From contig CAYTWA010000002.1 of assembly GCA_964441955.1 (NCBI GenBank), positions 9,894-73,893 on the forward strand: 64,000 bases of DNA. The letters run 5' to 3'. Within the stretch, counting starts at the first letter, position 1, and each line of letters begins with the position of its first letter. The position numbers were made by a program, and so were the translations under genes. Below the pieces are notes generated by a model. The model saw only the letters and a program-made list of their open reading frames with translations. It was not told the origin of the DNA and did no database searches. Origin of the DNA: an uncultured Elusimicrobia bacterium (GTDB lineage Bacteria; Elusimicrobiota; Elusimicrobia; 2-01-FULL-59-12). This document shows, piece after piece, positions 1 to 21,694 of this stretch.

Positions 1-3000
1 GCGGCGCGCTGCAAAGCGTTCATAGCCTGCAGGATTTAAACGCCCGGTTAAAAGGCGAAATTCAAGATTACCTTCACCGGGAAAAAGCGCTGAACGAGCG
101 CATGATCCGCCTTCAGCAGGAGCTTAACGACAGTTATTCCCGGCTTGACCAGCACACCTCCATTGACCGCGACCGCGAAGCCGCCGCGCGCGAAGCCCTC
201 CGGCAAGAAATCATCCTTGAACAAAATGCCAAGTGGCAAACCGAAATCGATGCGCTTCGTCAGTCGGTTCAAAACTGGAACGAGGTGCGCCGCCAGAAAG
301 AAACCGAACTGCGGATGATCAAAGAAGCCCTGCTACAAAAAGAAGCGGAAGTCTTCGCCCTGCAGAAAGAAAAAATCAGCAGCGAAGAAAAAGCTCATCG
401 CGATTTGGTTGAAGCCATCAGCAAAGCCCGCTCCGGCGTCCAAATGGCGATCGACGAAGTGGTTCGTTCCAAAGACCACGACATTCAAAACCTTAAAAAT
501 GAATTGGCCCAAGGCCCTATTGAGCTTGATCGCCGGCTGCAGCAAATCGAGCAGGACTACCGGAGAAAGGAACAAAATCTCCTCCATCAATTTCGCGAGC
601 GCCAGCAAGCGCTCGAACTCGATTGGACGCAGCGGGAAAAAGAACTCTGGGAACAAGTCTCCCGCTCCCGGCAAACCTTGGAGGCGGAGCTTAAGAAACA
701 ATGGGAAAACCGAACCCAGGAGTTAGAACGCAGTTTTGACCAGCGCCGTTCTTTCCTGGAAAACCAAACCCAGCAAAAAGAACATTTGATGGACCAGCGC
801 CTATCCGCGCGGGAGAATGAGCTCCTTTCGGTCTGGGCGGCCAAAGAATCGGCTCTGGTGCAGGATTGGGCCCGCAAGGAAAAAGCGCTGGCCGAACAAT
901 TCCAAAAAGCACTGGATGAAGAACGTCAAAGCGCGATGGCAGAAATTGCCCGCGTTAAAAAAGAATCCGAAACCTGGCGCGCGGCGCAGGAAGAAACGTG
1001 GCATTCCCGGGAAATCGAATTTAAGAAAGCCCAAAGCGAAACAGAGGACATGCTCCGGGACTCCTTCCGGCACCGTGAGGAAGACCTTCTAGCCAAGCAC
1101 CAAGACGCCTTAGGGAAGTCGCAAAAGCAAATCAGCGATTTATTGGCCCGCGCCAGTGAAAAAGACACCCAAGCCCGTGTGGCCATGGAAAAGCTGGCGA
1201 TGGTGGTAAAAGAACGCGACGCGCTTTCGGAAAGGCTTGAATCCACCACGCGCGACTCCCAGCAGCGCCTCATGATGGTTGAGCAGCAGCTTAAAACCCG
1301 TGAACGTGAGCTCCAGCAGCTGACCCAGCGCCTCGCATCGGAAGTGGAGGTTCGCGAGGCGCACATCCAGAATTTAACGCGCAAAAACACCGCTCAGGAA
1401 TCAGACGTGAAAGTGCTTCAGGAAAAAATTGAGCGCGCCGAAATCGACCGGGACGCAAGCCAGAAAAAGGCGGTGGAGCTTGAGACCGATTTCATGGCAC
1501 GCCGCCAGTCTTTGGAGCAGGCCTATCAAACAGAGATGTCTTCACTTCGGGAACGCTTAACCGTTCTATCTCAAACGACTTCGCAAAAAGAACAGACGTA
1601 TCAGCGCCGGGTGGCCGAACTTGAAACGGATTTATTGGAACGCGTCTCTCAGGCGCAAACGCTTTCCGACCAGCTTTCCGTGGCCCGGACAGATTTTCAG
1701 GAGCTGCTTCAAACGTCTACGACTCGCGACGACCGTCTGGCGAGTATCGAGCGGGAGTTGGCCAACGCCCTGGAAGAGGTCCGAAGTCTAACCCATCATT
1801 TAAAGCGCCAAGAAGAAGTTCGCGATGAACTCCAATCGAAGAATGAAGCGCTACAAGGCCAGCTTCGCGAAGAAACCCAACGATTTGAAGAACGTTTAGC
1901 CCACGCCGGCCACGAGGCCGACATGATGCGCGGCCGTCTGGAGCAACGTGTTGTTGAGCTCGAGGGATTGTTCCGCCAAAAAAGCACCGATGCCCAGACG
2001 CTGCAAATACGCTTAAACGAAGCGATGCAAGCGTTTAAAACGCTGGAAAGTGTTTCGAGCGAACGACAAACGGAACTCTCAGCTCGCCTTCAAGCTTTGG
2101 AACAGGCCTCGAACGCCGAAAAAGAGGCCTTTGACGTGCAGCTTCAGGGCCTGCGCCAAAAAGATCTAGCTCTCCAGCAATCTTTGGAGGCGCGTATTCG
2201 CGAACTTGAAACCGATATTGCCCGTCGCGCAGCCGTTCAAGCCGACTTGCAGGGACAAGTCCAAAGCTTGCAAGAAACCCGCCAAGATATCAGCGAGCGC
2301 TCGGCAGCGCGGGAAGCCCAGCTTTTGGACGAAGTTCACGATCTTAAAAACAAGATTCAGGTCCAAAAAGAGCAGCTCACCTCTCGCGTCTTGGGGCTGG
2401 AGCGCGAACGTCATCAAACCGAAGAGGCGCTTCATGCGAAAGCCCTCGAGTTGGAGCAGCGGCTAGGACAAAAGAGCACCACGCTAAAAACAGTTCAAGA
2501 TGAATTGAGCAAAGCCCATGAAACGACTGAGCAATTAGGGAAACGATTGACGACGGTTGAAGCCCATCTCCAGCGCGCGGAAGGGCAGCTTAAAGCCAAA
2601 GAGACGGAACTTCACGCTCTCATAAACGCTTCCCACAAACAAGCCGCGGAAACTCAAGAAACCTACCAGCGGCGTTTGCTTGATCTGCAAAATCAAAAAC
2701 TCAAGCTCGAAACTGATTTAAAGGGCGTCCAGGATCTGTTGGCGCGAACGGAAAGCGCCCGGGTGGCCATTGAAAAAGACGCCGCGCTTCTTGAGACGCA
2801 GCGGCTCAGCCAAGTGCAAAAGTTGGAAGAACGTTTGGTCGCGCAAGAGCGAGCCCATGAAGAGCGCTTCGCCCATGCCGATCAAGCCGCGCAAACCATG
2901 CGCGGCCAGTTGGAAAAAAGGATTTTGGATGTGGAAGGCCAGCTGCGTCAGAAAATGACCGATTTGCAAACGCTCGAAAGCCGCCTTAAAGAGGCTGTGG

Positions 3001-6000
3001 ACGAACGAAAATCCTTTGAAACGGCTTCGGACACCCGTAAAACCCAGCTTTCGAAGGAAGTCGATGAGCTTAAAGAGAAGGTCAAATTTCAAAAAGAGCA
3101 ACTCGCTTCCCGCGTCATGGGGCTTGAACGAGAACGCCATCAGATCGAAGACGCGTTACAGGCCAAAATTTTAGAACTCGAGCAAAGCGGCAGTCAGAAA
3201 ACAACCGCGATCAAAACCCTTCAAGAACAGCTCACCAAGGCGCGCGAACGCAGCGAACAGATGGAAAAGCGTCTGTCCACAGTGGAGGCCCACCTGCAGC
3301 GCGCGGAGGGGCAGCTAAAGGCCAAAGAAACGGAACTTCATTCCCTAATAAGCAGCTCGCACAAGGAATTAAACGAGTCCCAGGAGACGTATCAGCGGCG
3401 CATCTTGGAGCTGCAAAACAACAAACTCAAACTGGAGACCGACTTAAAAAGCCTTCAAGAATCGCTGGCGCGCGCCGATGGCTTGCGTGCGTCCCTTGAA
3501 AAAGAAGCCGCACAGCGTGAACGGACATGGCGCGCCGCGGAGGGTGAATGGAAGGGTGCCGCTGAAGCCAAGCAAAAGGAGGCAGGCCTCCAGCAGACGG
3601 CGCTGACGAAACGCATCGATGAATTAGAGAATCAAGTCCGCCAAAAAACGGTGGAACTCCAGACTTTCGAAGCGCGCCTTTCGGTCGCCGAAGACCAGCG
3701 AACGGCTTTTGAGAAAGACGTGCAAGCCGGCCGCAGCCAGATCGTTGCGATGCAAAAACAAATTTTGGATTTAAAGACCGGCCTTCAGGAACGTGAATCG
3801 GAGCTAAAAGAAAACCATCAGTCGCTCCTTTCGCTGCAAAAAGAACGGCAAACGCTATTGGACTCACTTGAGGCCGAGCGCAAAGGTGTTGCCTTGGAAC
3901 GCCAGGCCTGGGAATTCACCGCGGCACAAACCGATCAAGCGCGTCAGAAAGAAAACGCGGCCTTTGAGGACCGGCTGCTCGCGCTCCAGCAGGAACGCGC
4001 CCAGGTGGAACGGACACTTCAAAAACAGGTTACCGATCTTCAGGAAACGCTCACGCTTCGCGTCGCGGACCTTGAAGATGCCAAACAACAACTTCAAACC
4101 ACTCTCCAGGAGCGCCTGGCGTTTGACAAGGCGGTGGGGGTCAGGACGTCCGAGGCCCTCCAGCGGCACGATGAATTGGAAAAGCGCTATTTTGCAGAGC
4201 GCGACAAAGCGCAACTTGCCGAAACCACGCTGGCCGCGCAAGTCTCGGAACTTCAGTCCCTGCAAGCGGAGCTATCGGCCATCCGCGAAGAGCGCCAAAC
4301 GCTTATTTCCCAACTGGCCAGTGAAAGGCAGAAATCGCAGACGGATTTGCGCGCCGCGGCGAATGACCACGTGGAGCGTGCCGAAGCGCTTCAGAAGCGT
4401 ATCCAAAACCTCGAAATTAACCTTGGTGCGGAGCGCAGCCAATTTGAGCAGCGGATGGCCGCCGTGCAAAAAGACCGCGCCGAGAAAGAGGAAACCCTGC
4501 ATCGTCGCCTCTTAGAGCTTCAGGATGTGGCCTCAGGCCGCGCCGCGGAAATCCAGGGGCTTAAACAGAGGCTTCATGAAGCCGAACAAGCCCGTTTTTC
4601 TTTGGAGAAAACAACGGGCGAACAGCTTGGGAAAGCCCAGCAGAGCCAAACCGATCTCGAGAAGCGGTTTTTTGCCGAACGCGGCCGCGCAGAGCAGGCC
4701 GAGAGCCAATTAGCCGCTCAATTGTCTGAAATCAAAGAATTAAAGGAGGCTGTAGCCTCGGCGCGGCAAGACAGAGAGACGCTGCTTAAAACTCTCTCTG
4801 AGCAGCGCGAGAAAGCGATGTCGGATTTAAGCGCCCTCCAAAAGGCGGCCCAGACCTCCGAACAAGAGGCGCGCCGGCAGATGCATGTGCTTGAGAAGGA
4901 GTGGCGTGACCGGCTGAATGCGGCCGCCGCGCAATCCGCGGAGCGGGTTGCCACTTTACAATCCCAAGTGACGGTGCTTGAAAAGGCTCAAGTCGCCGAA
5001 AAGGCCGATTTTGAAAAGCGTTTGGCTCTTTTTGTGGAAGAACGCGCCCGCGCTGAAGAAGCGCTGCAGACCCGATTGATCAGCCTCCAAGAAGGGCTGG
5101 CGCGCCAGCAGACCTTGGCTACCGAATTGACCCAAAAATTAGACGCCTCCGAAAAAACTCGCGACATTCTTGAAAAGCTTTCGCGTCAAACAGGTGAGGA
5201 ATGGAAAGCCGATCGCCAGGCGCTCGCGCAGCAATTAAATGCGCAGCGCGAACAAATCGTGCGGCTTGAAAAACAGCTGTCGGCCCGTGAAGAAAACGTT
5301 CAAGACATCCAACAAGCGCTGGCGCAGGCCCAAAAAGACCGCCAAGCTTTGACCGAGTCGCTACAGCACGCAAAAGTCAGTTTTGATTTGGAACGAACCG
5401 GTCTAGAGTCACATTTTGAACGCTCCAGTGAAACGCTCCGCTTCAAGTTCATGGAAGCCCAAAAGCAGACTGCCGCTCAAGCTTTGATGCTCGAAGAGCA
5501 GCGGGCGCGTCTTATGCAGCTCGAGGAGCGTCTTAAAGACTCCGAACAGCGTCGCTCAATGATGGAAAAAGCAGGGACCCTTCAGTCCACGGAAGCTGAG
5601 AACCGTCGCCTCGATTTGGAAACGCATCTTCGGGCGGAACGTGAGCGGTCGGGTCATATGGAAACTCGCTTGACGGCCCAAGTCTCGGAGCTTAAGGAAC
5701 TTAAAGAAGCTCTCGCCGCTGCCCGGCAGGAACGCGAAAGCGTGCTAGTGACCCTCGCTAGTCAGCGGGACAAAGCCTCTCAGGATCTGGCCGATCAGCA
5801 AAAGGCGCTGCAGACGTCGGAGGCCGATTCCCGTCGACAAATTCAAGCGCTAGAGAAAGAATGGAAAGAGCGCTTAAGCGCAGCGTCCACGCATGCCTCA
5901 GAGCGTATCGACGCACTTCAAGCCCAGGTCGCGCAGCTCGAACAAACATTGTCCCGTGAAAGGCATGATTATGAAGTGCGCTTGGCGGGCTTGGTGGATG

Positions 6001-9000
6001 AGCGTGCGCGAGCCGAAGCAGCGCTTCAAGCCCGACTAAGCCAGATCCAAGATCAGTTGGCGCGCCAGCAGACGCTCGCGCAGGAGATGACGCTCCAAAT
6101 AGCCGCCTCTGAGAAAGAGCGCGAAAGTTTGGAAAAAGCGTCGCGCCAAAACGGGTCCAATTGGAAAGCGCAGCAGGCCGCTATTCAGACGCAACTGGAC
6201 GCCTACCGCGAACAGATTCGGGGGCTTGAAACGGAGCTTGCGGCCCGCCAAACAGATTTAAAGGATGTCCATGCGTCCTTAGCCGCCGCGCAAGCGGACC
6301 GGCAAGCGTTAATCGAGTCGCTCCAAACGCACAAGCAAGGGTTTAGTCTCGAGCGAAGCGCTCTCGAATCGCTCATGGAAAAGACCGTCACCGATTCTAC
6401 TCACGCCATGGACGTCTTACGTGCAAGGCTGGTAGAGGCGGAGAAGCAGGTGGCCGTTCACCTGAATGCGCTAGATGACCAGCGCTCACGCGTCGTGCAG
6501 TTGGAAGCGCGGCTTAAGGAATCTGAACAACGCCGTGTCTCTATAGAACAATTGGGAGCGACCCAGTTGGCCGAAGCCGAAAAATGCCGCCGCGATCTTG
6601 AAACGCGACTGAGCGCGGAACGCGACCGCGCCGGCCTCATGGAGACGAAACACGCAACTCAAGTGTCGGAGTTGAAAGAATTGCACAACGCGCTCGCCTC
6701 CGCGCGCCAGGAGCGCGAAACGCTTCTTGAAACATTGTCGGCTCAGCGTGAAAAAGCGACTGCCGACTTGATGGCTCAGCAAAAAATGCTTCAGACTGCG
6801 GAGTCCGAAGCGCGTCGGCAGACGCAGGCCCTTGAAAAAGAATGGCGGGATCGTTTAGCGGCGGCCTCCGCTCAATCCACGGATCGGATTACGGCGCTTC
6901 AAGCGCAGGTCACGCAACTTGAGCAAACATTGACCCAAGAGAGACACCAGGTCGAAAAACGGCTTGCGGCTCTGGTGGAGGAACGATATCAAGCCGAAGC
7001 AGCCCTCCAGGACCGCTTAACGGCCTTAAGCGAAAATTTAGCGCGTCAGCAAACGATGGCTCAAGAAATGGCGCTTAAACTAGCGGCCTCCGAGAAGGAG
7101 CGAGAAAGTCAGGAAAAAGCCGCCCGCATGGCGGGGTCCGATTGGAAAACACAACAAACCGCATTCCAAACGCAATTGGAAGGTCAACGCGACCACGTTC
7201 GGCAATTGGAAAAACAGCTGACGTCGCGTGAACACGATTTAAAAGAAGTTCAAGCCGCGTTGTCGGCGGTTCAAAAAGACCGTCAAATTCTAACGGAAAA
7301 GCTCGAATCGCAAAGACAAGGATTTGAGCTAGAACGGGCGGCCTTGGAAGTGAAGTTGGCGGAAGGACAAAAAGCCGCCAGCCAAGCCATCGCCAAACTC
7401 GAATCGCAGTGGCGCCAAAGGCTCGATACGGCCGCGGAGGAATCCACCCAAACGGTGGAAGCGCTGCGCCAACGAATCGTGGAAATTGAGCAGAAATGGG
7501 GCGAGCGGAATGCGGCGCTGGAAAAAGATTGGCGCGAGCGCTTAAGCGCCTCGGGCGTCCAATACACCGAACGCCTTGCCGGTCTTCGCTCGCAAATGGC
7601 TTCCTTAGAGGCGGCGCACCGAGACCAAACAGCCTCCTTAGAACAGGCGCTGGCAGCTCAGAAAGCCGATTTTGAAAAACGCATCACCGTTTTCCAGCAA
7701 GAGCGCACTAAAGAAGAATCGATTCTTCGGGAGCGTTTAATGTCGCTGCAAGACAAGGCCGGCCATAAAGAGGCGGACTTGTCCGCGCTGGCGAAGGATC
7801 TCGAAGGAGAGCTTGCAGCCGCCCGCCAGGAACGGGATGCATTGGCCAGTGAGCTTACGCTTCAGAGGGAAGAATCCGTCAAAGCCCTTCGTGCGGCCGA
7901 GGGCACCGCCAAAACTCTCGAAAGCCAGTGGCGCTCTCGTTTGGACGCCTTGGACAAATCGGCTCAAGAACGGGTCGCGCGCGTCACGACCGAAGCGGCT
8001 GAACGGCTGGAGGCCTTTGAAGCGCGCGTGGAAGAATTAGAAAAGCGTCTTGCCTCCGAGCGCAGTGATTTTCAAAAACGTTTAGAAGCCCAAACCGCTC
8101 AAGCCGAACGTGTCCAAGCCCCCCTGCAGCAGCGGTTGATCGAATTGGAGCGCGCCGTGGCCGAGCGCTCGGGCTCTCTTAAGGCCGTCCAAGAAAAGCT
8201 GTCGCGCTTAGAAGAGGCCAAGGCGCGCCTTGAAAAGACCGCGGCGACCGACGCCGCTCAGGCCGCCCGGACCTACCGGCAGATGGAAGAGCGTTTGGCC
8301 GCCGAAGGCGGTCGTGCGGAAGCGTTGGTCGGCCAGATTCAGGCGCATCAGCTGCAAATCAAGGAATTAGACGCCGTTTTATCCGCGGTGCGTGAAGAGC
8401 GTCAAGCCTTAAGTGAATCGCTCGAAGCGCAGCGCCAGAAATTTATGGCTGATATGAAGGACCAAGGGCAATCCCTCAGCCAGCGTGAGCGCATGGTCGC
8501 TCAGCAAATCCATGAATTGGAGAAGGAATACACTCAGCGCTTGAGCCAGCAGGAAAAAGATTTCAAATCGCAAAGCGAAGCGCTTCATGAACGGGCCCGT
8601 GCGCTGGAAGCGGACTTGGCCCGCCGGGAATCGGCCGCGCAAGCGATCGAAAAACAATTGCGCCGGGAATACGAAGCGCGCCTCCATGAAGAACGGGAAA
8701 AAGCGCGCAAACTTCAGACCGACTTGGCCGCGCTTAGTTCTTCCGTGAGCGACTTGGAAAGCCGCTGTGCCACTCTTCAGGGCCAGAAGGAAACCAACGA
8801 CGACCATTTCGAGCAGGAACGATTTCGATTTGCCGATCAAATAAAAGGTCTCGAAACGCGCCTTAAGGAACAAAAAGCGGAATCCAAACGGACAGTAGAG
8901 GCGTTGGAACTTGAACTTCGTTCCCAATCCGCGGGTGTTTCAAAGGAATCGGTCGACCGTCTGGAAAATGTCCAGCGCCGGGTGCGCGAGTTGGAGCAGC

Positions 9001-10028
9001 TTATGGACCGAAAGGATACTGAAATCGGCGTGCTTCGGGAACAAATGGACCATTTAGAAAAAGCCTCGGCTCATCGTGAGAAGGAAATGGTTCGTACTCA
9101 TGCGAAGGAATTAGAAGAAATGCAAAGCCGCTTCCTAGGCAAGATGAAAGAGATCCGCGCGGAGTCCGAGGAAGCCTTACGCCGCGTGCAAAATGAGTAT
9201 TTATCGCAAGAGTCTGTGGCAAGCCCGGATTTGCGTGGAATGGAAGAACGCCGAGTTTTAGAAGCAAAGCTTCGGGAGGCTCAAGCGGAACTGGAACAAG
9301 CGAAAGTCCGCGAGCCCGCACGCCTAGCGGATGCCGGAGTGTCCAAATCCTTGATGGAAGAATGGGTGTTTGGTTTTGCCCATCAAGTCCGCAACCCCCT
9401 AGGCATTATCCGAAGTGTTGCCGAATCGTTGAAATGCCAGGTGGCGCTCAGCCGCGGTGGTGGTGAGGCCATCGACGCCATTTTGAAGGCGGTCGATGGG
9501 TTAAATGGACGCCTTAAAGAATTTATCGAATTCTCCAAACCGGTTAAACCCTTCTGCCAAGCCTTGGATGTACGAACCACGGTGGAAAAAGCCTCTTCCG
9601 GGCTGCGCGAGCGAATGAAGCGGCAGCGGGTGGACTTCAAAATGGACATTCCACACAATTGTCCGACTCTGCCTTTGGACCCCGATCACATGCAAACGAT
9701 TTTGGTCAATTTGATGAGCAATGCCTTGGATGCCATGCCCGATGGCGGTAAACTGCGCGTGGAAGCGCGTTACGCGCCCTCAGGCGGAAAGCTGGAGCTG
9801 CGCGTTCAAGACACAGGCCGGGGAATTCCCAAAGAACATATGAAGGAAGTGGGTCGTCCGTTTTTCTCCACGAAACCGGGTGCCGTCGGTTTGGGGCTTG
9901 CTCTCGTCAAACGCCTGCTTCGCGCTTATCACGGCGACGTGGTGGTCGAAAGCAAACCTAACCAAGGCACGACGGTCCTATGCCGGCTCCAGGTTCTTGA
10001 TAAAGGAGAAACCGCATGGGCCGCGTAA
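1..10028 (+). CDS. Giant coiled-coil sensor histidine kinase (5' partial; >3,340 aa). About 3,100 aa of heptad-rich, SMC/myosin-tail-like coiled coil followed by HisKA (H-box FAHQVRNPL) and HATPase_c (N-box LVNLMSNALDA, G1 DTGRGIP, G2 GLGLALV)
   Basis: ORF 102..10028 continues in frame without a stop to base 3 (translated by hand upstream of the first ATG), so it is 5'-truncated. The C-terminal ~230 aa show canonical histidine-kinase motifs. The rest is E/Q/R/K/L/A-rich repeats with no TM segment. Confidence 0.85.
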   Translation, partial: GALQSVHSLQDLNARLKGEIQDYLHREKALNERMIRLQQELNDSYSRLDQHTSIDRDREAAAREALRQEIILEQNAKWQTEIDALRQSVQNWNEVRRQKETELRMIKEALLQKEAEVFALQKEKISSEEKAHRDLVEAISKARSGVQMAIDEVVRSKDHDIQNLKNELAQGPIELDRRLQQIEQDYRRKEQNLLHQFRERQQALELDWTQREKELWEQVSRSRQTLEAELKKQWENRTQELERSFDQRRSFLENQTQQKEHLMDQRLSARENELLSVWAAKESALVQDWARKEKALAEQFQKALDEERQSAMAEIARVKKESETWRAAQEETWHSREIEFKKAQSETEDMLRDSFRHREEDLLAKHQDALGKSQKQISDLLARASEKDTQARVAMEKLAMVVKERDALSERLESTTRDSQQRLMMVEQQLKTRERELQQLTQRLASEVEVREAHIQNLTRKNTAQESDVKVLQEKIERAEIDRDASQKKAVELETDFMARRQSLEQAYQTEMSSLRERLTVLSQTTSQKEQTYQRRVAELETDLLERVSQAQTLSDQLSVARTDFQELLQTSTTRDDRLASIERELANALEEVRSLTHHLKRQEEVRDELQSKNEALQGQLREETQRFEERLAHAGHEADMMRGRLEQRVVELEGLFRQKSTDAQTLQIRLNEAMQAFKTLESVSSERQTELSARLQALEQASNAEKEAFDVQLQGLRQKDLALQQSLEARIRELETDIARRAAVQADLQGQVQSLQETRQDISERSAAREAQLLDEVHDLKNKIQVQKEQLTSRVLGLERERHQTEEALHAKALELEQRLGQKSTTLKTVQDELSKAHETTEQLGKRLTTVEAHLQRAEGQLKAKETELHALINASHKQAAETQETYQRRLLDLQNQKLKLETDLKGVQDLLARTESARVAIEKDAALLETQRLSQVQKLEERLVAQERAHEERFAHADQAAQTMRGQLEKRILDVEGQLRQKMTDLQTLESRLKEAVDERKSFETASDTRKTQLSKEVDELKEKVKFQKEQLASRVMGLERERHQIEDALQAKILELEQSGSQKTTAIKTLQEQLTKARERSEQMEKRLSTVEAHLQRAEGQLKAKETELHSLISSSHKELNESQETYQRRILELQNNKLKLETDLKSLQESLARADGLRASLEKEAAQRERTWRAAEGEWKGAAEAKQKEAGLQQTALTKRIDELENQVRQKTVELQTFEARLSVAEDQRTAFEKDVQAGRSQIVAMQKQILDLKTGLQERESELKENHQSLLSLQKERQTLLDSLEAERKGVALERQAWEFTAAQTDQARQKENAAFEDRLLALQQERAQVERTLQKQVTDLQETLTLRVADLEDAKQQLQTTLQERLAFDKAVGVRTSEALQRHDELEKRYFAERDKAQLAETTLAAQVSELQSLQAELSAIREERQTLISQLASERQKSQTDLRAAANDHVERAEALQKRIQNLEINLGAERSQFEQRMAAVQKDRAEKEETLHRRLLELQDVASGRAAEIQGLKQRLHEAEQARFSLEKTTGEQLGKAQQSQTDLEKRFFAERGRAEQAESQLAAQLSEIKELKEAVASARQDRETLLKTLSEQREKAMSDLSALQKAAQTSEQEARRQMHVLEKEWRDRLNAAAAQSAERVATLQSQVTVLEKAQVAEKADFEKRLALFVEERARAEEALQTRLISLQEGLARQQTLATELTQKLDASEKTRDILEKLSRQTGEEWKADRQALAQQLNAQREQIVRLEKQLSAREENVQDIQQALAQAQKDRQALTESLQHAKVSFDLERTGLESHFERSSETLRFKFMEAQKQTAAQALMLEEQRARLMQLEERLKDSEQRRSMMEKAGTLQSTEAENRRLDLETHLRAERERSGHMETRLTAQVSELKELKEALAAARQERESVLVTLASQRDKASQDLADQQKALQTSEADSRRQIQALEKEWKERLSAASTHASERIDALQAQVAQLEQTLSRERHDYEVRLAGLVDERARAEAALQARLSQIQDQLARQQTLAQEMTLQIAASEKERESLEKASRQNGSNWKAQQAAIQTQLDAYREQIRGLETELAARQTDLKDVHASLAAAQADRQALIESLQTHKQGFSLERSALESLMEKTVTDSTHAMDVLRARLVEAEKQVAVHLNALDDQRSRVVQLEARLKESEQRRVSIEQLGATQLAEAEKCRRDLETRLSAERDRAGLMETKHATQVSELKELHNALASARQERETLLETLSAQREKATADLMAQQKMLQTAESEARRQTQALEKEWRDRLAAASAQSTDRITALQAQVTQLEQTLTQERHQVEKRLAALVEERYQAEAALQDRLTALSENLARQQTMAQEMALKLAASEKERESQEKAARMAGSDWKTQQTAFQTQLEGQRDHVRQLEKQLTSREHDLKEVQAALSAVQKDRQILTEKLESQRQGFELERAALEVKLAEGQKAASQAIAKLESQWRQRLDTAAEESTQTVEALRQRIVEIEQKWGERNAALEKDWRERLSASGVQYTERLAGLRSQMASLEAAHRDQTASLEQALAAQKADFEKRITVFQQERTKEESILRERLMSLQDKAGHKEADLSALAKDLEGELAAARQERDALASELTLQREESVKALRAAEGTAKTLESQWRSRLDALDKSAQERVARVTTEAAERLEAFEARVEELEKRLASERSDFQKRLEAQTAQAERVQAPLQQRLIELERAVAERSGSLKAVQEKLSRLEEAKARLEKTAATDAAQAARTYRQMEERLAAEGGRAEALVGQIQAHQLQIKELDAVLSAVREERQALSESLEAQRQKFMADMKDQGQSLSQRERMVAQQIHELEKEYTQRLSQQEKDFKSQSEALHERARALEADLARRESAAQAIEKQLRREYEARLHEEREKARKLQTDLAALSSSVSDLESRCATLQGQKETNDDHFEQERFRFADQIKGLETRLKEQKAESKRTVEALELELRSQSAGVSKESVDRLENVQRRVRELEQLMDRKDTEIGVLREQMDHLEKASAHREKEMVRTHAKELEEMQSRFLGKMKEIRAESEEALRRVQNEYLSQESVASPDLRGMEERRVLEAKLREAQAELEQAKVREPARLADAGVSKSLMEEWVFGFAHQVRNPLGIIRSVAESLKCQVALSRGGGEAIDAILKAVDGLNGRLKEFIEFSKPVKPFCQALDVRTTVEKASSGLRERMKRQRVDFKMDIPHNCPTLPLDPDHMQTILVNLMSNALDAMPDGGKLRVEARYAPSGGKLELRVQDTGRGIPKEHMKEVGRPFFSTKPGAVGLGLALVKRLLRAYHGDVVVESKPNQGTTVLCRLQVLDKGETAWAA
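1880..3500 (+). repeat. Second intragenic repeat pair (~410-nt conserved block QKEQL.SRV.GLERERHQ.E.AL.AK.LELEQ...TVEAHLQRAEGQLKAKETELH..I..SHK...E.QETYQRR.L.LQN.KLKLETDLK) at ~2350-2760 and ~3080-3490. A weaker ERF..HA..MRG.LE match lies at ~1880 and ~2860.
   Basis: Near-identical peptide blocks read in the translation of the giant ORF. Confidence 0.55.
4640..7380 (+). repeat. Three tandem intragenic repeats of ~960-980 nt (~325 aa). Conserved blocks LTAQVSELKELKEAL...ASQRDKAS.DL..QQK.LQTSE...RRQ.QALEKEW..RL.AAS...ER..ALQAQV.QLEQTL..ER
   Basis: Protein-level self-similarity read directly from the translation. Copies start near nt 4670, 5630 and 6610, with ~60-70% aa identity. Confidence 0.7.
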
Positions 10029-11182
10029 TGGTGGTGGACGATGAGGCCGACATGCGCATGGCGCTGCGACTCTTTCTTCAAAATAGCGGCCACGAAGTCG
10101 AAGAAGCGGAAAACGGCGAAGCCGCTTTGGCGAACCTTTCAAACGGTGCTTCTTACGATTTAGTTCTCATGGACATGCGCATGCCCGGGATGGACGGGCT
10201 CCAAACGCTGACGAAGCTGCGCGAAACGAAAAAAGATTTACCGGTGATCATGGTGACCGGCTACGGCAGCGTTGACCAAACAGCCGAAGTGCTCGAAAAA
10301 GGCGCCAACGGCTACATCACCAAGCCTTTCCAACACCAGGAATTGCAGGATGCCATGAGCCGAGTGGGCCTGGTATCGCAAGGAAGCGATGAAGCGAGTA
10401 AGCGTGTCAGCACAGACGGGACTAACTCGCCTAATCGCTCACTTGCTCACTCGCGCCGTTGGATAACGCTTGGCTCCGTCGCTCTTGCGATCATTGGTTT
10501 TAGCTGGCAGCGCGGATGGCTGACCAATGACGATTTTAAGCTGGCCTATTCCAACCCCGTCGACATGACCTGGAATGCAGGAAAACTCTGGGTGGGGGAT
10601 TGGTTTACACAATCCATTTATATTCACGACATCGCCAAATCGGGCGCACCCATTGTTAAAACCTATTATTTGCCCGATGTGCATGTGACTGGCGTGGCGG
10701 TGGCGGGGGATCGCCTCTACACCTCGGACTCCTGGGATAAGAAAATCCGCCGGCATAAAATGGACGAATACTTAACGATTGAGGCTGTCCTTCCCGCCCC
10801 GGGTCAAAATCCGACGAGCCTCTTTTTTGATGGGAAATATCTGTGGTCGATGGACTCGAAGGCCGCCCGAATTTATCAGCATCGCCTGGATGAAAAACTG
10901 ACTGTTGTGGCCGATTATAAAGCCCCGGGATCGGCGCCGGTCGGGTTTTTCAAAGATGAAAAGTTTGCCTGGGTGTCCGACAGTCAAACCCGCCGGCTTT
11001 ATAAGCTGCGTCTGGATGACCAATTAACGACACTCGAGTCCTATACGATTTCCGATCTGGAAGCTCGCCGCGAACCCCTGTCTTGTTTCCGCTGGATTAA
11101 CGGCAACCTTTGGTTTGCCCGCGACCGGCTCGGAACAATGTTCAAGCGAACCCCTCGCAGCCTAAAGCTAGCCGCGAAGTAA
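10016..11182 (+). CDS. Response regulator with N-terminal REC domain (D-D-...-K motifs: VVDDEADM, LVLMDMRMPGMDG, ITKPF), one predicted TM helix (WITLGSVALAIIGFSW) and a C-terminal ~230-aa domain of four to five ~42-aa repeats (..SDSWDKKIRRHKMD / ..MDSKAARIYQHRLD / ..SDSQTRRLYKLRLD) resembling beta-propeller blades
   Basis: Start ATG overlaps the stop of the giant kinase by 13 nt (translational coupling). The CheY-like receiver motifs are clear. The repeat periodicity was read from the sequence. Confidence 0.8.
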   Translation: MGRVMVVDDEADMRMALRLFLQNSGHEVEEAENGEAALANLSNGASYDLVLMDMRMPGMDGLQTLTKLRETKKDLPVIMVTGYGSVDQTAEVLEKGANGYITKPFQHQELQDAMSRVGLVSQGSDEASKRVSTDGTNSPNRSLAHSRRWITLGSVALAIIGFSWQRGWLTNDDFKLAYSNPVDMTWNAGKLWVGDWFTQSIYIHDIAKSGAPIVKTYYLPDVHVTGVAVAGDRLYTSDSWDKKIRRHKMDEYLTIEAVLPAPGQNPTSLFFDGKYLWSMDSKAARIYQHRLDEKLTVVADYKAPGSAPVGFFKDEKFAWVSDSQTRRLYKLRLDDQLTTLESYTISDLEARREPLSCFRWINGNLWFARDRLGTMFKRTPRSLKLAAK

Positions 11183-11267
11183 AGGCAAGACCCTTGCGTC
11201 ACTATTCCCATAAATACACACCCAAATAGCCCAGTGATTTACCGTTAGAGATGGAATAAACTATCGC

Positions 11268-14200
11268 ATGCGCGCTGTTTGCAATATAGGAATTATTTTT
11301 TGCTTGTTTGTTCAAGCCATCGATGGCGCACCTGGCGACTTCCGGTCGCCGGTCCGGCGTGATCCAACGGCTCTCCCCGCTTGGACCGTTCAAGCTCTGG
11401 CCTTAGAAAGCATCGCGGGCTTTTTTGGGCGTCTATTACCCCGAACGCCGCGTTACGTCCTATTAAAAGGACTTAGGCCAAACCCAGACCTGTTGCCCGT
11501 CATCGAAGGCCCGGGTCGCTTACACCCCGAGGCGCTAACAAAAGCGTTTGAAGAATATGCGAGGAATGTAGAGGAGGTCGGGTCGGACGCTTCGAATGCG
11601 TTTCCTCAAACCGCGTCCGCGCCGTCGAGCGCATTTTACGGGGTCATGCATTTCTTGAATAATCCACAACCCTTCAAAGACGAACAAGCCCGCTTTTTAG
11701 CGGCGCTTCACACGATCATCCAAGCCGACATGGGTGGCCATCCAAATTTCGACGGCATTTGGAAGGACGTAAAGTCTCATCTTATCGCGGTGCCCCCGGA
11801 AGGCTTGCACGTGACGCTGGCCGCACTGGCTAACGGGAAGAGCGATTTTCGCTCCATGAAATACTGGGTTTACCGTTACCAAATTGGGCAGTGGCTAAAT
11901 CGCCTGGGACCCTTTTTCCCGGAAAGCCATTGGCATTATGCCGGGGATATAAAGTTTTTTGATGCCTCCATCCCAGCTGTAGCCGCTGTCTTACGCCCGA
12001 ATTCGCCCGAGGATTTATTTACATTTCGTTCATTGGGAACAGCTATCGCTGGAAAATTATCACTCCGGTCCCATCTTGTCCATGTGACTCTATATTATGT
12101 GGACTATTCTTTACCCACGCCGAGCCATGCGAAGGAGTGGAGTGAGCAGCAGTTAAGACTTTGGATCAACGCGGCGGTTTTGAAATGCTCTGGCGACACA
12201 GTTAGCCCTGCCGCATTGGCCATCGATTCCATCACGCCAACAGCCTCCACAGCCCTAAATCAACTTCATCCTGACAAGCCAATCAAACTGAAAGATCGTC
12301 AAACCTTCGAAGATGCCGTTGCTAAAGGGAAAGCCGCCCTCGCTCGCGCGCTCATGCCTGGCGATTACCCGCAGGCGCTAGTGGCCGTGCTGGGGCTTTT
12401 TTACCAATACCATTTAAGCGACTTAAACGCCTTATTTATCGCCGTGGCGGAGGGGAAAATACCCATTTGGCGTATCGAACGACTTTTGTCAAGCCGTAAA
12501 ATGCTCGGTGTTGAGCTCCGGGAATGGAAGCCGTTGACAGGCACGGCGACAGCGAAAATTCGGGTGCGTCACGACCACCCGGGGCTATCGCTGGCCATTT
12601 CGCATACGATAGACCAGTCTCACGGTGTCGTGTCCCGTATGGGTAACGGAAAACAATTTGAAATTGTAATCGATCAAATTCAGGACGAGAATGAACTTCG
12701 GCAGCTAATGGCAGCGTTGAGCCAAATCCCGGACGTCGGCGTCCGGTTTTTCTGGCAATGGCCGATCTTGCACCGGATCCGAAATGCTCTCCATGGGACG
12801 ACAAGCGTTCGATTGACTGCGCTGCTCCCCACCCACCAAAAAGAAGCAGGGCAAATGAGTCAAAAAACTCGGTTATTACAGGCTCTGCTGGCGTTGGATC
12901 CAAATGCCAATTTAACGCATTTAGAGGTGGAGCGTCGCCCGCCTCTGGGGACTCAGCTTGAAATGAGCATCGATATTCGATCAGCCGTTGCGCCCTTTCT
13001 CGAAGAAACCTTGAACCGGGCTCTTGGCATCAAGGCGGTCCAATCCGTGCAAACGAATCACGATCGGCGCGGCCTGTCATCTCAATTGTCAGATTGGATC
13101 TGGTCCGATGGCTATGCGCTAATTCTTTTTAGCAGTTTGGCTTTGGCATTGCTGAGCAGCTTATGGGTTTTCGCCGCGTTTGGCCCAGACGGGATATTCG
13201 CGTATGGGAGTTTGTTGTTAAGCCCAATTTTGGCGCACCTCTACGTTTATGCGAATTTGCTGCAGCTAAAAATTTATCCTTCGGACAATTTGTCTCCTGG
13301 CCGCCTGGAAGATGCCCGGTTACCAGCCGTATGGCGGCAATGGGGATGGTCCGATCATGCCGCCTTATCCGTATCTTTCTTTTGTCTTCCATGGGTGGGT
13401 TACCTCGTAGCCGCCATTCCTTTTTTTCTCCACTTTCCAACCTGGCCCGGCGCCGCGATGGCGGTTGGACTACTAAGTTCTCTGGCTTTTCCTTTATGGA
13501 TTGGAGACTCGCTCCATCGAAGCGCCGTTTGGGCCATGTATTATGAAAAAGATCAAATCTTGGGGCGACTTAAGCGGTCAAGCCCGATTCGTGTCGGCGA
13601 CTTGTTGATCTTGGACGCCTCCCATCCCCTTAAACCCTCCGTCGTAGTGCTCCTGCCGCTCGATGGAGTACGCGTGCAGGACGATGACTCAAACAAGTTT
13701 TACGAGATCCGGGTTTGCTTTATGCCGAACAACTTCGTCCCATGGGAGCTTAAAGTTTACGAGGGTAAGAAGTGTATTCAAAGAATTGATTTGGAATTGG
13801 ATTACGAAAAGGAGCAGCTCTTGGTTCGGGGTTGGTTTAAGCTCGAAGACGATAAGGATTTCTCCAGCATGATTTTAAAAGTCCTTCATGAAAAAATGCC
13901 GGAGGGTTTTCGACTTTCGGGACCTTGGGAATACAGGCGAAAGGGCGCTTCCAACCCATCATCATCGTCATGGTTGGAGTCCTGGTGGCGTGCTCGTCCA
14001 TGGATGGGTCCCGAAGGGCTTATTTTTATCGACGAAAGTGCGCGGTTGGTACGAATAGACCATTCAAGAGATTTGACCGAGGAAGATATTTGCCGGATCG
14101 AAACCACCTTCTTCAGAGGGTACTTTCAAGAGGTGGGCGACGAGGCACCGCGATCCGTTAAACTATTGACGAGCTTGTGGTTGCGGCTTGGGCTGGTGGA

Positions 14201-14774
14201 CGAAGTGTCTTTGACGGATTACTTATTTAGTCTCGCCTCAACAAAACCCTCGAACGCAAATAAAGACACGTTTATCCGATTTATGAACGGCCAACACTTC
14301 ATCACGGGATTCAGACAAGGAAAACGCGACGTCGATCCCGCCACATTGACGTCGGACCCATCGTTGTTAAAAGAATTGGCCGCCCTCCAACCGGTCCAAC
14401 GTTATTGGCTCAGAACGCTCCTCGAGCGCGACGGTGTTGACCCGCGTGTAGCCGTTGGTTGGTTAACGCCGTCCATTTTTTTACATATGAATGAGCACAT
14501 TGAAATTATTCAGAAGGATGGTCGTTACCTTTTGAGATTATTGGGATTTATTTCGGGGGACGAGGGGAAATTCGCTCAAGCACTCTATGCGGGACATATC
14601 GAAGACAAGCCTCTCAACCTAAGAAAAGTGTCCGAGCGAAGGCGCTTCTTTCAACGTGTGAAACCAGATCAAATATCCACAGAAGCCCTTGCTTTATGGG
14701 CCGACGTCCTTCGTTGGATAAACCAATACGGATTTAAACCCGTTTCCTACTGGAAAACGACCACGGCCGCCTAA
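11268..14774 (+). CDS. Orphan 1,168-aa protein with a possible N-terminal signal/anchor (IGIIFCLFVQAI), a central cluster of 4-5 TM helices (aa ~610-760) and a ~400-aa C-terminal soluble region. The gene is markedly lower in GC (~45%) than its flanks.
   Basis: Long uninterrupted ORF. The GC drop is visible by eye (e.g. 12000-12120, 13700-13900). I recognise no domain signatures. Confidence 0.6.
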   Translation: MRAVCNIGIIFCLFVQAIDGAPGDFRSPVRRDPTALPAWTVQALALESIAGFFGRLLPRTPRYVLLKGLRPNPDLLPVIEGPGRLHPEALTKAFEEYARNVEEVGSDASNAFPQTASAPSSAFYGVMHFLNNPQPFKDEQARFLAALHTIIQADMGGHPNFDGIWKDVKSHLIAVPPEGLHVTLAALANGKSDFRSMKYWVYRYQIGQWLNRLGPFFPESHWHYAGDIKFFDASIPAVAAVLRPNSPEDLFTFRSLGTAIAGKLSLRSHLVHVTLYYVDYSLPTPSHAKEWSEQQLRLWINAAVLKCSGDTVSPAALAIDSITPTASTALNQLHPDKPIKLKDRQTFEDAVAKGKAALARALMPGDYPQALVAVLGLFYQYHLSDLNALFIAVAEGKIPIWRIERLLSSRKMLGVELREWKPLTGTATAKIRVRHDHPGLSLAISHTIDQSHGVVSRMGNGKQFEIVIDQIQDENELRQLMAALSQIPDVGVRFFWQWPILHRIRNALHGTTSVRLTALLPTHQKEAGQMSQKTRLLQALLALDPNANLTHLEVERRPPLGTQLEMSIDIRSAVAPFLEETLNRALGIKAVQSVQTNHDRRGLSSQLSDWIWSDGYALILFSSLALALLSSLWVFAAFGPDGIFAYGSLLLSPILAHLYVYANLLQLKIYPSDNLSPGRLEDARLPAVWRQWGWSDHAALSVSFFCLPWVGYLVAAIPFFLHFPTWPGAAMAVGLLSSLAFPLWIGDSLHRSAVWAMYYEKDQILGRLKRSSPIRVGDLLILDASHPLKPSVVVLLPLDGVRVQDDDSNKFYEIRVCFMPNNFVPWELKVYEGKKCIQRIDLELDYEKEQLLVRGWFKLEDDKDFSSMILKVLHEKMPEGFRLSGPWEYRRKGASNPSSSSWLESWWRARPWMGPEGLIFIDESARLVRIDHSRDLTEEDICRIETTFFRGYFQEVGDEAPRSVKLLTSLWLRLGLVDEVSLTDYLFSLASTKPSNANKDTFIRFMNGQHFITGFRQGKRDVDPATLTSDPSLLKELAALQPVQRYWLRTLLERDGVDPRVAVGWLTPSIFLHMNEHIEIIQKDGRYLLRLLGFISGDEGKFAQALYAGHIEDKPLNLRKVSERRRFFQRVKPDQISTEALALWADVLRWINQYGFKPVSYWKTTTAA

Positions 14775-14849: not shown

Positions 14850-15641
14850 TTAGGAAGGATTCGAAATTTCGGCGTCGGATAACGACGGGAAGGTGAGGGT
14901 GACGGTGGTTCCTATTTTGGGGATGCTTTGGAACTGGGTTTGCGCGTGGTGCTGTTCGATGATGCGTGCGGCGAAGAAAAGCCCGAGGCCCACCCCGCCT
15001 GGTTTTGTGGTTTTAAAAAGGGTTTTCCCGGGCTTTGGGAGTTTAAGGCCCGGCCCGGTATCCCTAATGAGAATTTGGACGGACCCCTTATTCGTCACCT
15101 GCGTCGACAACGTCAGTGTTCCGCCGGGAGTCATGGCCTCGATGGCGTTGACCGCGTAATTAAGGACCGCCTGTTCTAAGAGCTCCGCTTGAAAGAAAAC
15201 GTCCGGGAGTTTGGCTTCTTGGTGTTTTTCAAAGTGCAGACCTTTACGTTTGCAAAGTTCCTCCGCGTAGTCGGCCGCCGCGTTGACCACCGGGTTGATG
15301 GATCCGCAGTTCATCGGCGGTTGTTCCCCTTTGGCATAAAGCAGTAAATGGCTGACGATGCGCGAAAGCTTTCCGGCGCTTCGTTCAATCAAATCCAACG
15401 GCTGACGCTGCTCCGGGAGCAGTCCTTTTTGCCCCCGCAGTAATTCGGTGGTCGTTTGAATGGTTTGAAGCGGGGAGCGGAATTGGTGAACGAAGCCAGC
15501 CACCATCCGCCCGAGTGTCTTCCATTTTTCAACTTCAAGAGCAGCGGCAGAGGGAGTGAGAGTCAAGGTAGATTTCTTTTTAAAAAAAATTCCTTGACAC
15601 CCTCTCCCTCTGCCCTTGCTCTTCACGGTGTGATTGCCCAT
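14850..15641 (-). CDS. Soluble, sensorless histidine kinase: HisKA (FVHQFRSPL) + HATPase_c (N-box AVNAIEAMTPGG, G1 IRDTGPGL, G2 GGVGLGLFFA). The N-terminus contains an in-frame palindromic element.
   Basis: Motifs are present in the translation. The start ATG at 15639-15641 overlaps the stop of the upstream cNMP-patatin gene by 1 nt. Confidence 0.8.
   Translation of the reverse strand: MGNHTVKSKGRGRGCQGIFFKKKSTLTLTPSAAALEVEKWKTLGRMVAGFVHQFRSPLQTIQTTTELLRGQKGLLPEQRQPLDLIERSAGKLSRIVSHLLLYAKGEQPPMNCGSINPVVNAAADYAEELCKRKGLHFEKHQEAKLPDVFFQAELLEQAVLNYAVNAIEAMTPGGTLTLSTQVTNKGSVQILIRDTGPGLKLPKPGKTLFKTTKPGGVGLGLFFAARIIEQHHAQTQFQSIPKIGTTVTLTFPSLSDAEISNPS
15547..15613. repeat. Palindromic element copy A: arms GCAGAGGGAGTGAGAGTCAAGG / CCTTGACACCCTCTCCCTCTGC, core TTTCTTTTTAAAAAAAA. 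Lies in-frame within the 5' end of the small HK gene on the - strand (encodes KSKGRGRGCQGIFFKKKSTLTLTPSAAA).
   Basis: 22-bp imperfect inverted repeat. No stop codons in the HK frame. Confidence 0.75.
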
Positions 15642-17641: not shown

Positions 17642-17666
17642 GGGGGGCCTCGCTATAATCCGCCGG

Positions 17667-21004: not shown

Positions 21005-21694
21005 ATGACGATTTTCTGGCGTTTAATTCTTGCGCATTTCATCGCAGACTTCACGCTGCAGACGAACAAGGTCGCGGAGTGGAAGCGTGTCAGCCAAATG
21101 GGCATGGGCGTGCATGTGATCGCCCATCCGCTCATGTCGATGCTGCTCGCGTGGCCCTTTTTGGGGGACATCTGGGTCACCCTCGGGCAGACGCCGCTTA
21201 CGGGCTGGGCGTGTGTTGGGATCATCACCTTGATCCACTGGGTGGAAGATGAATTTCGAATTTGGGCGATCCGAAAAGAAATTGTGGCGGACGGCAGCGC
21301 TTTTTTAGCCTGGGATCAAGCGGTGCATTTAGGAAGCATTTATTTGTTTTCCCCCGCGCGGTCCGGGGGGCCAGGCGAGGTGTGGGTGCTCGTGGCACTC
21401 TGCGCGGTGCTTTTAACCCATGTAACGTCGGTCGTCATTTATTTCTTGGAGACAGATTCCGGGACGGAATCCGCCGTTTTAGGTCCGGGCAAATACCGCT
21501 TGATGGCGGAGCGCTTAATGGGGGGTATTTTGGTGTCTTTGCCCGGCTATTTCACGACTTTTGGATTCGTTTGGGTGGCCGCCCAACTCTACCGCCAAAC
21601 CACCCGCCGCTCACCCCGCACCTGGGTACACACTCTAACCACCTGCACAGCGGTTCTCGTCTTAGGCCTTATCGCTCGAAAAATCCTTTTTTAA
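21005..21694 (+). CDS. Polytopic membrane protein, DUF3307-like (N-terminal LAHFIADFTLQ motif)
   Basis: Hydrophobic ORF with an HxxxDFxLQ N-terminal motif. Weak family assignment from memory. Confidence 0.5.
   Translation: MTIFWRLILAHFIADFTLQTNKVAEWKRVSQMGMGVHVIAHPLMSMLLAWPFLGDIWVTLGQTPLTGWACVGIITLIHWVEDEFRIWAIRKEIVADGSAFLAWDQAVHLGSIYLFSPARSGGPGEVWVLVALCAVLLTHVTSVVIYFLETDSGTESAVLGPGKYRLMAERLMGGILVSLPGYFTTFGFVWVAAQLYRQTTRRSPRTWVHTLTTCTAVLVLGLIARKILF

Follow-up and report, generated by a model that had tools for sequence, protein, structure and literature searches.

The 64,000-nucleotide stretch of contig CAYTWA010000002.1 analysed here (the window), from an uncultured Elusimicrobia bacterium, opens within the gene of a giant coiled-coil histidine kinase (1..10028, + strand), whose end overlaps the gene of a response regulator with a receiver domain, a transmembrane (TM) helix and a predicted beta-propeller. 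The pair is an undescribed architectural variant of two-component signalling, set within an uncharacterised envelope operon. Two-component systems usually combine a membrane sensor kinase with a soluble transcription factor. Here the layout is inverted: the kinase is soluble and carries no recognisable sensor, and the response regulator is a membrane protein with a predicted extracytoplasmic output domain. About 90% of the mass of the kinase is rod, with a length comparable to that of a cell. In our best reading, to which we assign a probability of about 0.45, a rod-tethered kinase would control a trans-envelope complex through inside-out signalling. Neither giant coiled-coil kinases nor REC-TM-propeller regulators turned up in the literature searched, from which many subscription-journal papers are missing, and the family members bear uninformative database names ('hypothetical protein' or 'ATP-binding protein' at NCBI). 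To this extent the statement of an earlier sequence-only reading of the window, that no such architecture had been described, is borne out.

The giant gene is nearly complete in the window. On the + strand, frame 3 reads uninterrupted from position 3 to its stop codon at 10026-10028 (3,341 codons), and the first 25 codons lie to the left of the window; the program-made list of open reading frames (ORFs) begins the same frame at an internal ATG, at position 102. The full-length protein deposited at NCBI, P0001, is encoded on a contig of 539,981 nt, counts 3,366 aa and is 100% identical across the whole window frame. It starts with MDPLENNP... (MDPLENNPGQEREVTDIETARLALR) and then continues into the window's first residues; in a model made with AlphaFold2 (AF2) the 25 residues missing from the window form a short disordered tail before the first helix. 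In L001, an orthologous locus, only one codon separates the opening of the stop-to-stop frame from the called start, so that the N-terminus of that protein cannot extend further. These two observations rule out a hidden N-terminal sensor. The sequence-only reading was correct in calling the gene truncated at the window edge, but the truncation concerns 25 codons only, and the substantially larger protein with an unseen N-terminal sensor or anchor that it foresaw does not exist.

It had also been asked whether a frameshift or a fusion artefact could have joined the coiled coil to the kinase. The two lie in one frame, and an independent ENA metagenome assembly (L003) aligns without gaps to window positions 335..14243 and differs at two of them (99.986% identity). 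Within the giant gene every 20-mer is unique, and Tandem Repeats Finder (TRF) detected no DNA tandem repeats there. The concordant assembly, together with the lack of recurring 20-mers and of TRF repeats, makes a frameshift, a chimera or a repeat collapse very unlikely. The architecture, a giant coiled-coil region followed by a C-terminal HisKA/HATPase_c core, is therefore real, and it is kept in the relatives.

The position of the kinase core at the C-terminal end was confirmed by profile searches. The HATPase_c catalytic domain (9678..9992, +; window-protein residues 3226-3330) matches Pfam PF02518 at 1e-23, with 84 bits against a cut-off of 26.4, and the boxes of the catalytic and ATP-binding (CA) domain are readable (LVNLMSNALDAM, G1 DTGRG, F PFFSTK, G2 GAVGLGL). 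It is preceded by the dimerisation and histidine phosphotransfer (DHp) domain of the HisKA type (9375..9539, +), with the H-box FAHQVRNPL and the phospho-acceptor His encoded at 9381-9383. The NCBIfam AtoS model aligns through DHp and CA at 4.9e-47, covering the C-terminal ~235 residues, and the FAHQVRNPL H-box and the N, G1, F and G2 boxes are invariant among the orthologues. Among named proteins, the core is closest to NtrB/AtoS/HydH-type kinases (~35% identity). Judged from these motifs and the AtoS alignment, the core appears to be an intact NtrB/AtoS-type DHp+CA module of the class I histidine kinases, with a HisKA match that is weak (see below). Apart from the core no Pfam domain was found in the giant protein, HAMP included, nor any hydrophobic stretch of at least 15 residues. 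The earlier observation that TM segments and PAS, GAF or HAMP domains are lacking thus stands, and the kinase is by prediction a soluble cytoplasmic protein without a known sensor domain.

The partner gene (ORF2; 10016-11182, +), as read from the ORF list and the sequence, encodes 388 aa and overlaps the kinase gene by 13 nt (10016-10028). The last codons of the kinase contain a Shine-Dalgarno sequence, AAGGAG (10003..10008, +), 7 nt ahead of the partner's ATG (10016); were the second in-frame ATG, at 10028, used as the start, stop and start would overlap as TAATG. The receiver (REC) domain (10025..10354, +; Pfam match 6.1e-34) has its phospho-acceptor, Asp53, encoded at 10172-10174. The residues D8, D9, D53, T81 and K103 are conserved across 74 partner homologues, and the domain shows the CheY-like fold, the acidic pocket, the phospho-Asp, the Thr/Ser and the Lys of a receiver. 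In the AF2 model of the partner (predicted local distance difference test score, pLDDT, 91.7) the receiver (residues 1-116) is followed by a disordered linker (128-145), a single TM helix (148-168) and a propeller (172-388). The TM helix (10457..10519, +; SRRWITLGSVALAIIGFSWQRGWLT) is preceded by basic residues (SRR), which according to the positive-inside rule implies a topology with the N-terminus in and the C-terminus out, and the propeller is consequently predicted to lie on the periplasmic side. No known output class, such as OmpR, NarL, NtrC, LytTR, GGDEF or CheB, was detected after the receiver, where only the TM helix and the propeller are found. A regulator that overlaps the kinase by 13 nt and carries a receiver, a TM helix and a repeat domain in place of a DNA-binding output had been described from the sequence, and both Pfam and AF2 agree with this description.

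The propeller (10529..11179, +), predicted to be periplasmic, has YWTD/NHL-like blades, and the similarity of its blades to those of LRP6/LRP4 (YWTD type) is found at ~1e-8. Unlike the six-bladed YWTD propeller of low-density lipoprotein (LDL) receptor class B, it counts 20 strands in the AF2 model, i.e. five blades. Identity to the fold matches (YWTD, NHL, the five-bladed glutaminyl cyclase and YjiK) amounts to 11-16%. No Pfam propeller family, including Ldl_recept_b, and no enzyme family matched the partner above threshold. The LRP6/LRP4-like blades, combined with the lack of an enzyme-family match above threshold, would fit a binding module. A glutaminyl cyclase identity was considered and rejected, as the resemblance concerns the fold and no family-level sequence match was obtained. 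The 90%-identity cluster of the window partner is represented by an unrelated-looking 47-aa Ruminococcus fragment, apparently an oddity of the clustering and not biology.

The pair is a conserved unit. Among ~80 full-length homologues of the partner, the named ones all originate from metagenome-assembled genomes (MAGs) of Elusimicrobia/Elusimicrobiota, and the window partner is at most ~46% identical to them; these homologues would place the window's own clade in or near the Elusimicrobiota. Likewise, all 19 full-length partner matches in the genome collection (19/19) lie in Elusimicrobia/Elusimicrobiota MAGs, two of them labelled just 'bacterium'. These 19 Elusimicrobia-type or unclassified MAG genomes and four metagenome contigs provide 23 loci, in 21 of which the ORF upstream of the partner is rich in E, A, R, L, Q and K and ends between -13 and +18 nt from the partner start. 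In each of the seven loci that were scanned with Pfam (7/7) the upstream protein ends in HisKA and HATPase_c. The sequence-only reading had proposed to check whether the partner is retained beside homologues of the kinase, and it indeed is, with a kinase-type ORF adjoining it in 21/23 loci. On the basis of gene order, overlap and motifs, we consider the two genes to be a genuine two-component pair that is translationally coupled and co-inherited. Since the catalytic motifs of the kinase and the phospho-acceptor set of the receiver are both strictly conserved, phosphotransfer appears to be under selection. A REC+TM+propeller fusion outside the partner family was not found in the partner homology search.

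The size of the kinase varies widely within the family. Complete single-gene forms range from ~930 to 3,956 aa among the examined loci, and gene calls of 4,512 and 4,581 aa are present in two further metagenome contigs. The first homology search had returned four giant relatives of 3,751-4,482 aa. The notion that there are only five homologues was abandoned as an artefact of the word prefilter, for context look-ups and the partner-based genome scan uncovered many more members, among them single-gene forms of 2,040-2,860 aa and a form divided over two genes. The 2,859-aa protein of Elusimicrobia GWA2_69_24 matches P0001 both in the head (residues 1-396; 4e-22) and in the kinase core (3e-45). 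In a further clade (L018-L025; the split clade) a coiled-coil gene of ~1,000-1,285 aa overlaps a coiled-coil kinase gene of ~880-1,340 aa, which in turn is followed by the partner. The first of these genes begins ...NDVETARLALRWALDK and shares, by eye, the motif ETARLALR with the DIETARLALRGALQS of the window protein; when the head proteins of the split clade were scanned by hmmsearch with the head profile, no match fell below E = 1. In L018, a locus of this distant Elusimicrobiales clade, head plus rod and rod plus kinase are two overlapping genes at 2485-5988 and 5973-9992. Either this arrangement is a natural split, or the window's clade carries a fusion.

Between the head and the kinase core lies the variable coiled-coil rod (1248..9311, +), supported as such by periodicity, by heptad score, by a single Pro in the stretch and by the absence of a Pfam domain. 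The whole helical part, head and rod together, spans ~3,085 residues, of which the rod proper takes ~2,650. The first ~3,070 residues include only two prolines, and five amino acids (E 13.6, L 12.4, A 12.4, Q 10.9 and R 10.0%) together make up 59% of the composition. On a crude heptad score of our own making the mean is 0.43 (shuffles: 0.25). Fourier analysis of hydrophobicity yields one dominant peak, at 3.555 residues, with ~126 times the median power and ~10 times that of the best shuffle, and the peak stays within 3.53-3.60 in every 210-aa window of the rod. Within the window's clade the peak of each of the five orthologues falls at 3.55-3.565 and is ~3-11 times as high as that of the best of 30 shuffles, whereas the power at exactly 3.50 or 3.667 is at background in the five of them. 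The first ~400 residues peak at 3.61-3.67. In P0001 and the orthologues P0002-P0005 the hydrophobic periodicity remains in phase over more than 3,000 residues.

With its peak at 3.555 instead of 3.50 the rod is coiled-coil-like, but not strictly heptad. The value 3.556 equals 32/9, from which we infer roughly three heptads and one hendecad per 32 residues. The uninterrupted heptad coiled coil of the sequence-only reading is therefore retained as far as its coiled-coil-like nature is concerned, but not in its strict form, given the mean period and the breaks that are predicted at residues 186-197 and 409-415. Periodicity, composition and the AF2 helices provide the extended coiled-coil rod that is characteristic of intermediate filament (IF)-like proteins, as far as our own statistics go.

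Two families of tandem repeats, both recovered by chunked self-BLASTP, are embedded in the rod. Family A (2184..3713, +; protein residues ~753-1262) consists of two diverged copies of ~242 aa, with 54-67% identity at an offset of 242. Family B (4425..7547, +; residues ~1500-2540) has three diverged copies of ~320-327 aa, with 50-64% identity at offsets 320 and 327, and weaker half-units of ~160 aa extend across residues 1284-2920. The repeat length of ~160/320 aa equals 45/90 hydrophobic periods, and such a whole number of periods suggests that repeat expansion keeps the coiled-coil register. Conservation along the protein is bimodal: among the five orthologues identity is 57-73% in the head and 53-61% in the kinase core, against 27-34% in the rod. 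A PDB sequence search with a 700-aa segment of the rod gave no match.

The rod does not run directly into the kinase. A Pro/Gly linker, EPARLADAGVS (9312..9344, +; read from the sequence), separates it from the DHp helix and lies 13-23 residues before the phospho-His, and each clade examined has an equivalent Pro/Gly linker, 12-30 residues ahead of the phospho-His. The continuous helix from an input coiled coil into DHp helix 1, which marks signalling-helix and HAMP kinases, is absent. That this linker is conserved speaks against a role of the rod as a rigid signalling helix.

At the other end of the protein the conserved N-terminal head (3..1247, +; protein residues 26-440) carries the family hallmark DIETARLALRGALQS and periodic Trp motifs. 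The AF2 model of the head, based on a 33-sequence alignment (pLDDT 80.8), consists of a disordered segment (1-15), a helix (16-185), a loop (186-197), a second long helix (198-408) and a shorter one (416-436). The loop between the two long helices (483..518, +) is apparent from the DSSP assignment of the AF2 model and from a dip in pLDDT, and its Pro197 is invariant in the orthologue alignment. The head profile matches only 52 representatives among 1.84 billion proteins. Most of these are fragments, and nearly all of the matches start at their own first residues. Because of this N-terminal position, and because the heads form a separate gene in the split clade, the data suggest that the head is a functional module. 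Neither a Foldseek search with the head model nor a PDB search with the head profile gave a match. A scan of 185,579 species-representative genomes with the head alignment found nothing, which can be explained by the patterns being specific to the window's own clade, a clade that appears to be absent from that set; used on metagenomes, the alignment brought in only three further loci.

The link to the envelope follows from gene neighbourhood. In every clade the pair is neighboured by a gene for a TraF_2/PorP-like beta-barrel protein with a C-terminal LysM domain. In the loci with upstream DNA available, this outer-membrane-type barrel and an fn3 protein are both encoded in the operon. In L087 a gene encoding an fn3 protein with FlgD_ig/CHU_C precedes the barrel-LysM gene, which precedes the giant kinase gene, with overlapping stops and starts. 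The same order of fn3, barrel-LysM and kinase is found in L024, from a distant clade, and an fn3+CHU_C-type gene is thus located upstream in two clades. The genes upstream of the kinase in L087 (605-4962), L024 (301-2472), L001 (2-2080) and L002 (3-1730) also show weak signatures that resemble type IX secretion: a C-terminal CHU_C/FlgD_ig domain on the fn3 protein, and PorP/SprF-, PorV- and TraF_2-like barrels fused to LysM. A link with type IX secretion was not adopted, as the PorP/SprF, PorV and CHU_C matches are weak; we know of no type IX secretion system in the Elusimicrobiota.

Combining these elements, we propose that the kinase would dimerise via DHp and that the rod would form a parallel two-stranded coiled coil, which fully extended might reach ~0.45 µm (~3,085 helical residues of ~0.148 nm each). 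The rod probably serves as a spacer or scaffold and not as a conformational sensor, since its sequence and length drift, its repeats expand and the flexible linker uncouples it from DHp. The conserved head may be the input or docking site at the far end. The kinase end would dock on the membrane-bound receiver and phosphorylate Asp53, and this phosphorylation might be relayed to the periplasmic propeller, either via the TM helix or via oligomerisation. As a result the binding of the propeller to envelope partners would change, the best candidates being the co-encoded LysM beta-barrel and fn3 proteins. The pair could in this way couple a large cytoplasmic scaffold to a trans-envelope assembly, with a putative role in envelope organisation, adhesion, or polar or septal positioning.

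Several observations weigh against this reading. The direction of information flow is assumed; sensing could instead fall to the propeller, and the receiver would then modulate the rod or the kinase. The periplasmic placement of the propeller is based on a single TM helix and the positive-inside rule. The fn3 and LysM genes lie outside the window, and their presence in this genome is deduced from orthologous loci. The assignment of the rod as a coiled coil derives from our own periodicity statistics and from a monomer AF2 model of the head only, and heptad scores are weak at residues 201-400, 1301-1400, 1801-1900 and 2101-2300. The HisKA match of the window protein, with the last 258 aa scanned alone, is weak as well (9.1e-5; 22.9 bits, under the Pfam cut-off of 26.9); relatives in L008, L019, L021 and L025 exceed the cut-off with 28.5-31.9 bits. 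In two of the loci (L014 and L022) a short non-coiled-coil ORF takes the place beside the partner, and in two others (L007 and L015) there is only a very short upstream ORF, too short to judge. Finally, a small kinase encoded further downstream in the window (described below) is conserved near the pair and may serve as a second kinase or as a phosphatase for the receiver; it could be the true or an additional phosphodonor.

An alternative that we hold to be rather doubtful is that the system is primarily structural, the protein being an IF-like or polar-landmark scaffold (like crescentin, Scy/FilP, PodJ, TipN or HubP) that forms a cytoskeletal element, in which the kinase end and the receiver act mainly as a membrane anchor or assembly switch instead of as a pathway with its own output. 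The size and composition of the rod, a repeat expansion of the kind typical of structural spacers, and the lack of a transcriptional output domain anywhere in the operon would all agree with such a role, and the LysM-anchored envelope partners recall landmarks of the HubP/FimV type. The strict conservation of the catalytic motifs and of the receiver's phospho-acceptor set pleads against it, and lateral self-assembly is not a property that can be derived from sequence. Moreover, the structural alternative overlaps with the proposed inside-out signalling instead of excluding it.

A more mechanical variant, which we think unlikely, gives the rod (~0.3-0.65 µm long, with its hydrophobic periodicity in phase throughout) the part of a mechanical element. 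The fn3 surface protein, the LysM beta-barrel, the REC-TM-propeller protein and the giant kinase may then form a trans-envelope machine of Elusimicrobia-type bacteria that has so far gone unrecognised, with the head fixed at one site and the kinase at another, in which the rod would bear tension as a strut or serve as a ruler. In this case His-Asp phosphorylation of the membrane receiver, which would remodel the periplasmic side, would directly reflect the geometry of the cell or strain in its envelope. If true, the rod would span a large part of these very small cells.

The rod might also be a sensor in its own right, of temperature, tension, membrane curvature or crowding, that passes a helical rearrangement into DHp. 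Signalling helices and HAMP linkers do so in ordinary histidine kinases. The protein has no other sensor domain, and in all orthologues the periodicity keeps its phase for ~3,100 residues, which suggests that rod geometry is under selection. Nevertheless we consider this quite unlikely: the non-helical Pro/Gly linker shortly before the phospho-His (12-30 residues in every clade) means that the helix is not continuous into DHp, rod identity is down to 27-34%, the length of the rod varies about five-fold, and in one clade most of the rod is on a separate polypeptide.

Outside-in signalling, which appears distinctly improbable, would require the propeller to bind a ligand from the envelope or the environment, the receiver to act as a phosphate sink or docking site that alters the kinase, and the rod and head to be the output. 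It would make sense of a kinase without a recognisable input domain, of a propeller that is the only extracytoplasmic domain of the pair, and of the ligand-binding YWTD propellers being its closest sequence relatives. It reverses the usual His-to-Asp logic, though, and has no precedent in the literature searched, and a head as conserved as the kinase core is more in line with an input or docking role.

It is hardly credible that the giant gene is an artefact, made by a frameshift, a chimera or a repeat collapse that joined a small kinase gene to an unrelated coiled coil: giant repetitive genes are prone to misassembly and in one clade the head-bearing coiled coil and the kinase truly are separate genes, but next to the gapless agreement of two independent assemblies and the lack of 20-mer and TRF repeats, single-ORF orthologues from other samples (2,040-3,956 aa, with gene calls up to 4,581 aa) keep the order head, rod, kinase.

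The kinase core has clear relatives among the NtrB/AtoS/HydH kinases, with the C-terminal ~235 residues aligning to the AtoS module and the H, N, G1, F and G2 boxes intact. In those kinases the input comprises a few hundred residues of TM, HAMP or PAS type, and the partners are NtrC-type transcription factors. In contrast, the input here is a ~3,100-residue coiled coil without TM, HAMP or PAS and with a Pro/Gly linker before DHp, and the partner, unlike the NtrC-type regulators, has no DNA-binding or AAA+ domain. Two-component chemistry also meets a long coiled-coil rod in FrzS and AglZ of Myxococcus xanthus, cytoplasmic proteins linked to polar or envelope machinery in which a receiver is fused to a coiled coil of a few hundred to ~1,200 residues. 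In the system described here the coiled coil is instead on the kinase and is 3-10 times longer, and the receiver sits on a membrane anchor and has a domain predicted to be periplasmic. A relationship in sequence to FrzS or AglZ was not detected.

Coiled-coil scaffolds are known from several bacterial landmark proteins, such as Scy/FilP, PodJ, TipN and HubP/FimV. PodJ and HubP/FimV are linked to peptidoglycan, the latter via LysM, and recruit signalling proteins including histidine kinases; the peptidoglycan-binding part resides within the same polypeptide. To our knowledge none of these proteins, nor crescentin, has a histidine-kinase domain of its own, and their sizes are ~430-1,700 aa. The window's clade differs in having proteins of 3,366-4,581 aa, with the peptidoglycan-binding part in separate operon partners. 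Homology to crescentin or to the landmark proteins was found neither with Pfam nor in PDB searches of the rod and the head. Crescentin itself is a bacterial coiled-coil cytoskeletal protein with a long rod that functions as a scaffold (PMC10873595).

The sequence-only reading had compared the rod to an SMC arm or a myosin tail, and this likeness is one of composition only. The arm-region profiles of SMC match weakly (TIGR02168 at 55 bits and NF045487 at 30 bits, with cut-offs of 567 and 300), but an ATPase head with Walker A/B motifs, a hinge, an SMC_N match and a signature of antiparallel fold-back are all missing. The likeness to SMC is thus compositional, and as far as its domains and profiles tell, the giant protein is neither an SMC protein nor a kinase of the HAMP/S-helix type.

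The closest functional parallel for the proposed inside-out signalling may be LapD, in which a cytoplasmic input on an inner-membrane protein (cyclic di-GMP there, phosphorylation here) is proposed to control binding on the periplasmic side (PMC3032553). LapD has two TM helices, a HAMP domain, a degenerate GGDEF-EAL module and a periplasmic domain of the LapD_MoxY type, and its mechanism is established (PMC3032553). The regulator described here differs in its single TM helix, its REC input and its beta-propeller output, and its mechanism is deduced from these domains.

If the proposed reading is true, the pair would constitute a phosphorylation-driven route of inside-out signalling and the kinase would be the first one found to be built into a scaffold of cytoskeletal scale. 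The findings also point to a conserved, uncharacterised envelope operon in a poorly studied phylum with few cultured members. The gene pair is compact enough for direct testing, and the two-gene form of the split clade could be exploited experimentally.

The small kinase mentioned above is a sensor-less HisKA+HATPase_c protein of 263 aa according to Pfam (14850..15641, -), whose gene has a 1-nt overlap with the end of an upstream gene for a protein with a cyclic nucleoside monophosphate (cNMP)-binding and a patatin domain. A small kinase is also found near the pair in L001, L002, L004 and a contig of JGI 3300050046 (42-46% identity), and the window protein is 31-35% identical to the PAS-kinase that is encoded directly upstream of the giant gene in L005 and L010. 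The small kinase is part of a block (window 14850-17641 on the - strand, and 17544-20997 and 21005-21694 on the + strand) that is syntenic with the pair in related contigs and encodes, besides the small kinase, the cNMP-binding and patatin phospholipase, HisS, a CHASE2 adenylate/guanylate cyclase and a DUF3307 protein. It may be that this cyclic-nucleotide module feeds the same signalling node.

Directly downstream of the pair, ORF3 (11268-14774, +; 1,168 aa) encodes a protein with a signal-peptide-like N-terminus and several hydrophobic segments, for which Pfam and NCBIfam scans gave no match. The corresponding position in related loci is occupied by a 589-aa gene, by Fic/toxin-like genes or by nothing, and the sole other member of its 90% cluster is a 301-aa fragment. 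ORF3 was not retained as a third component of the system, in view of the missing family match and the lack of conservation at this position. Finally, the syntenic block is followed by a tRNA-Arg(GCG) gene (21733-21807, +) and then directly by a transfer-messenger RNA (tmRNA) gene (21823-22189, +) with the tag peptide GEPLALAA.

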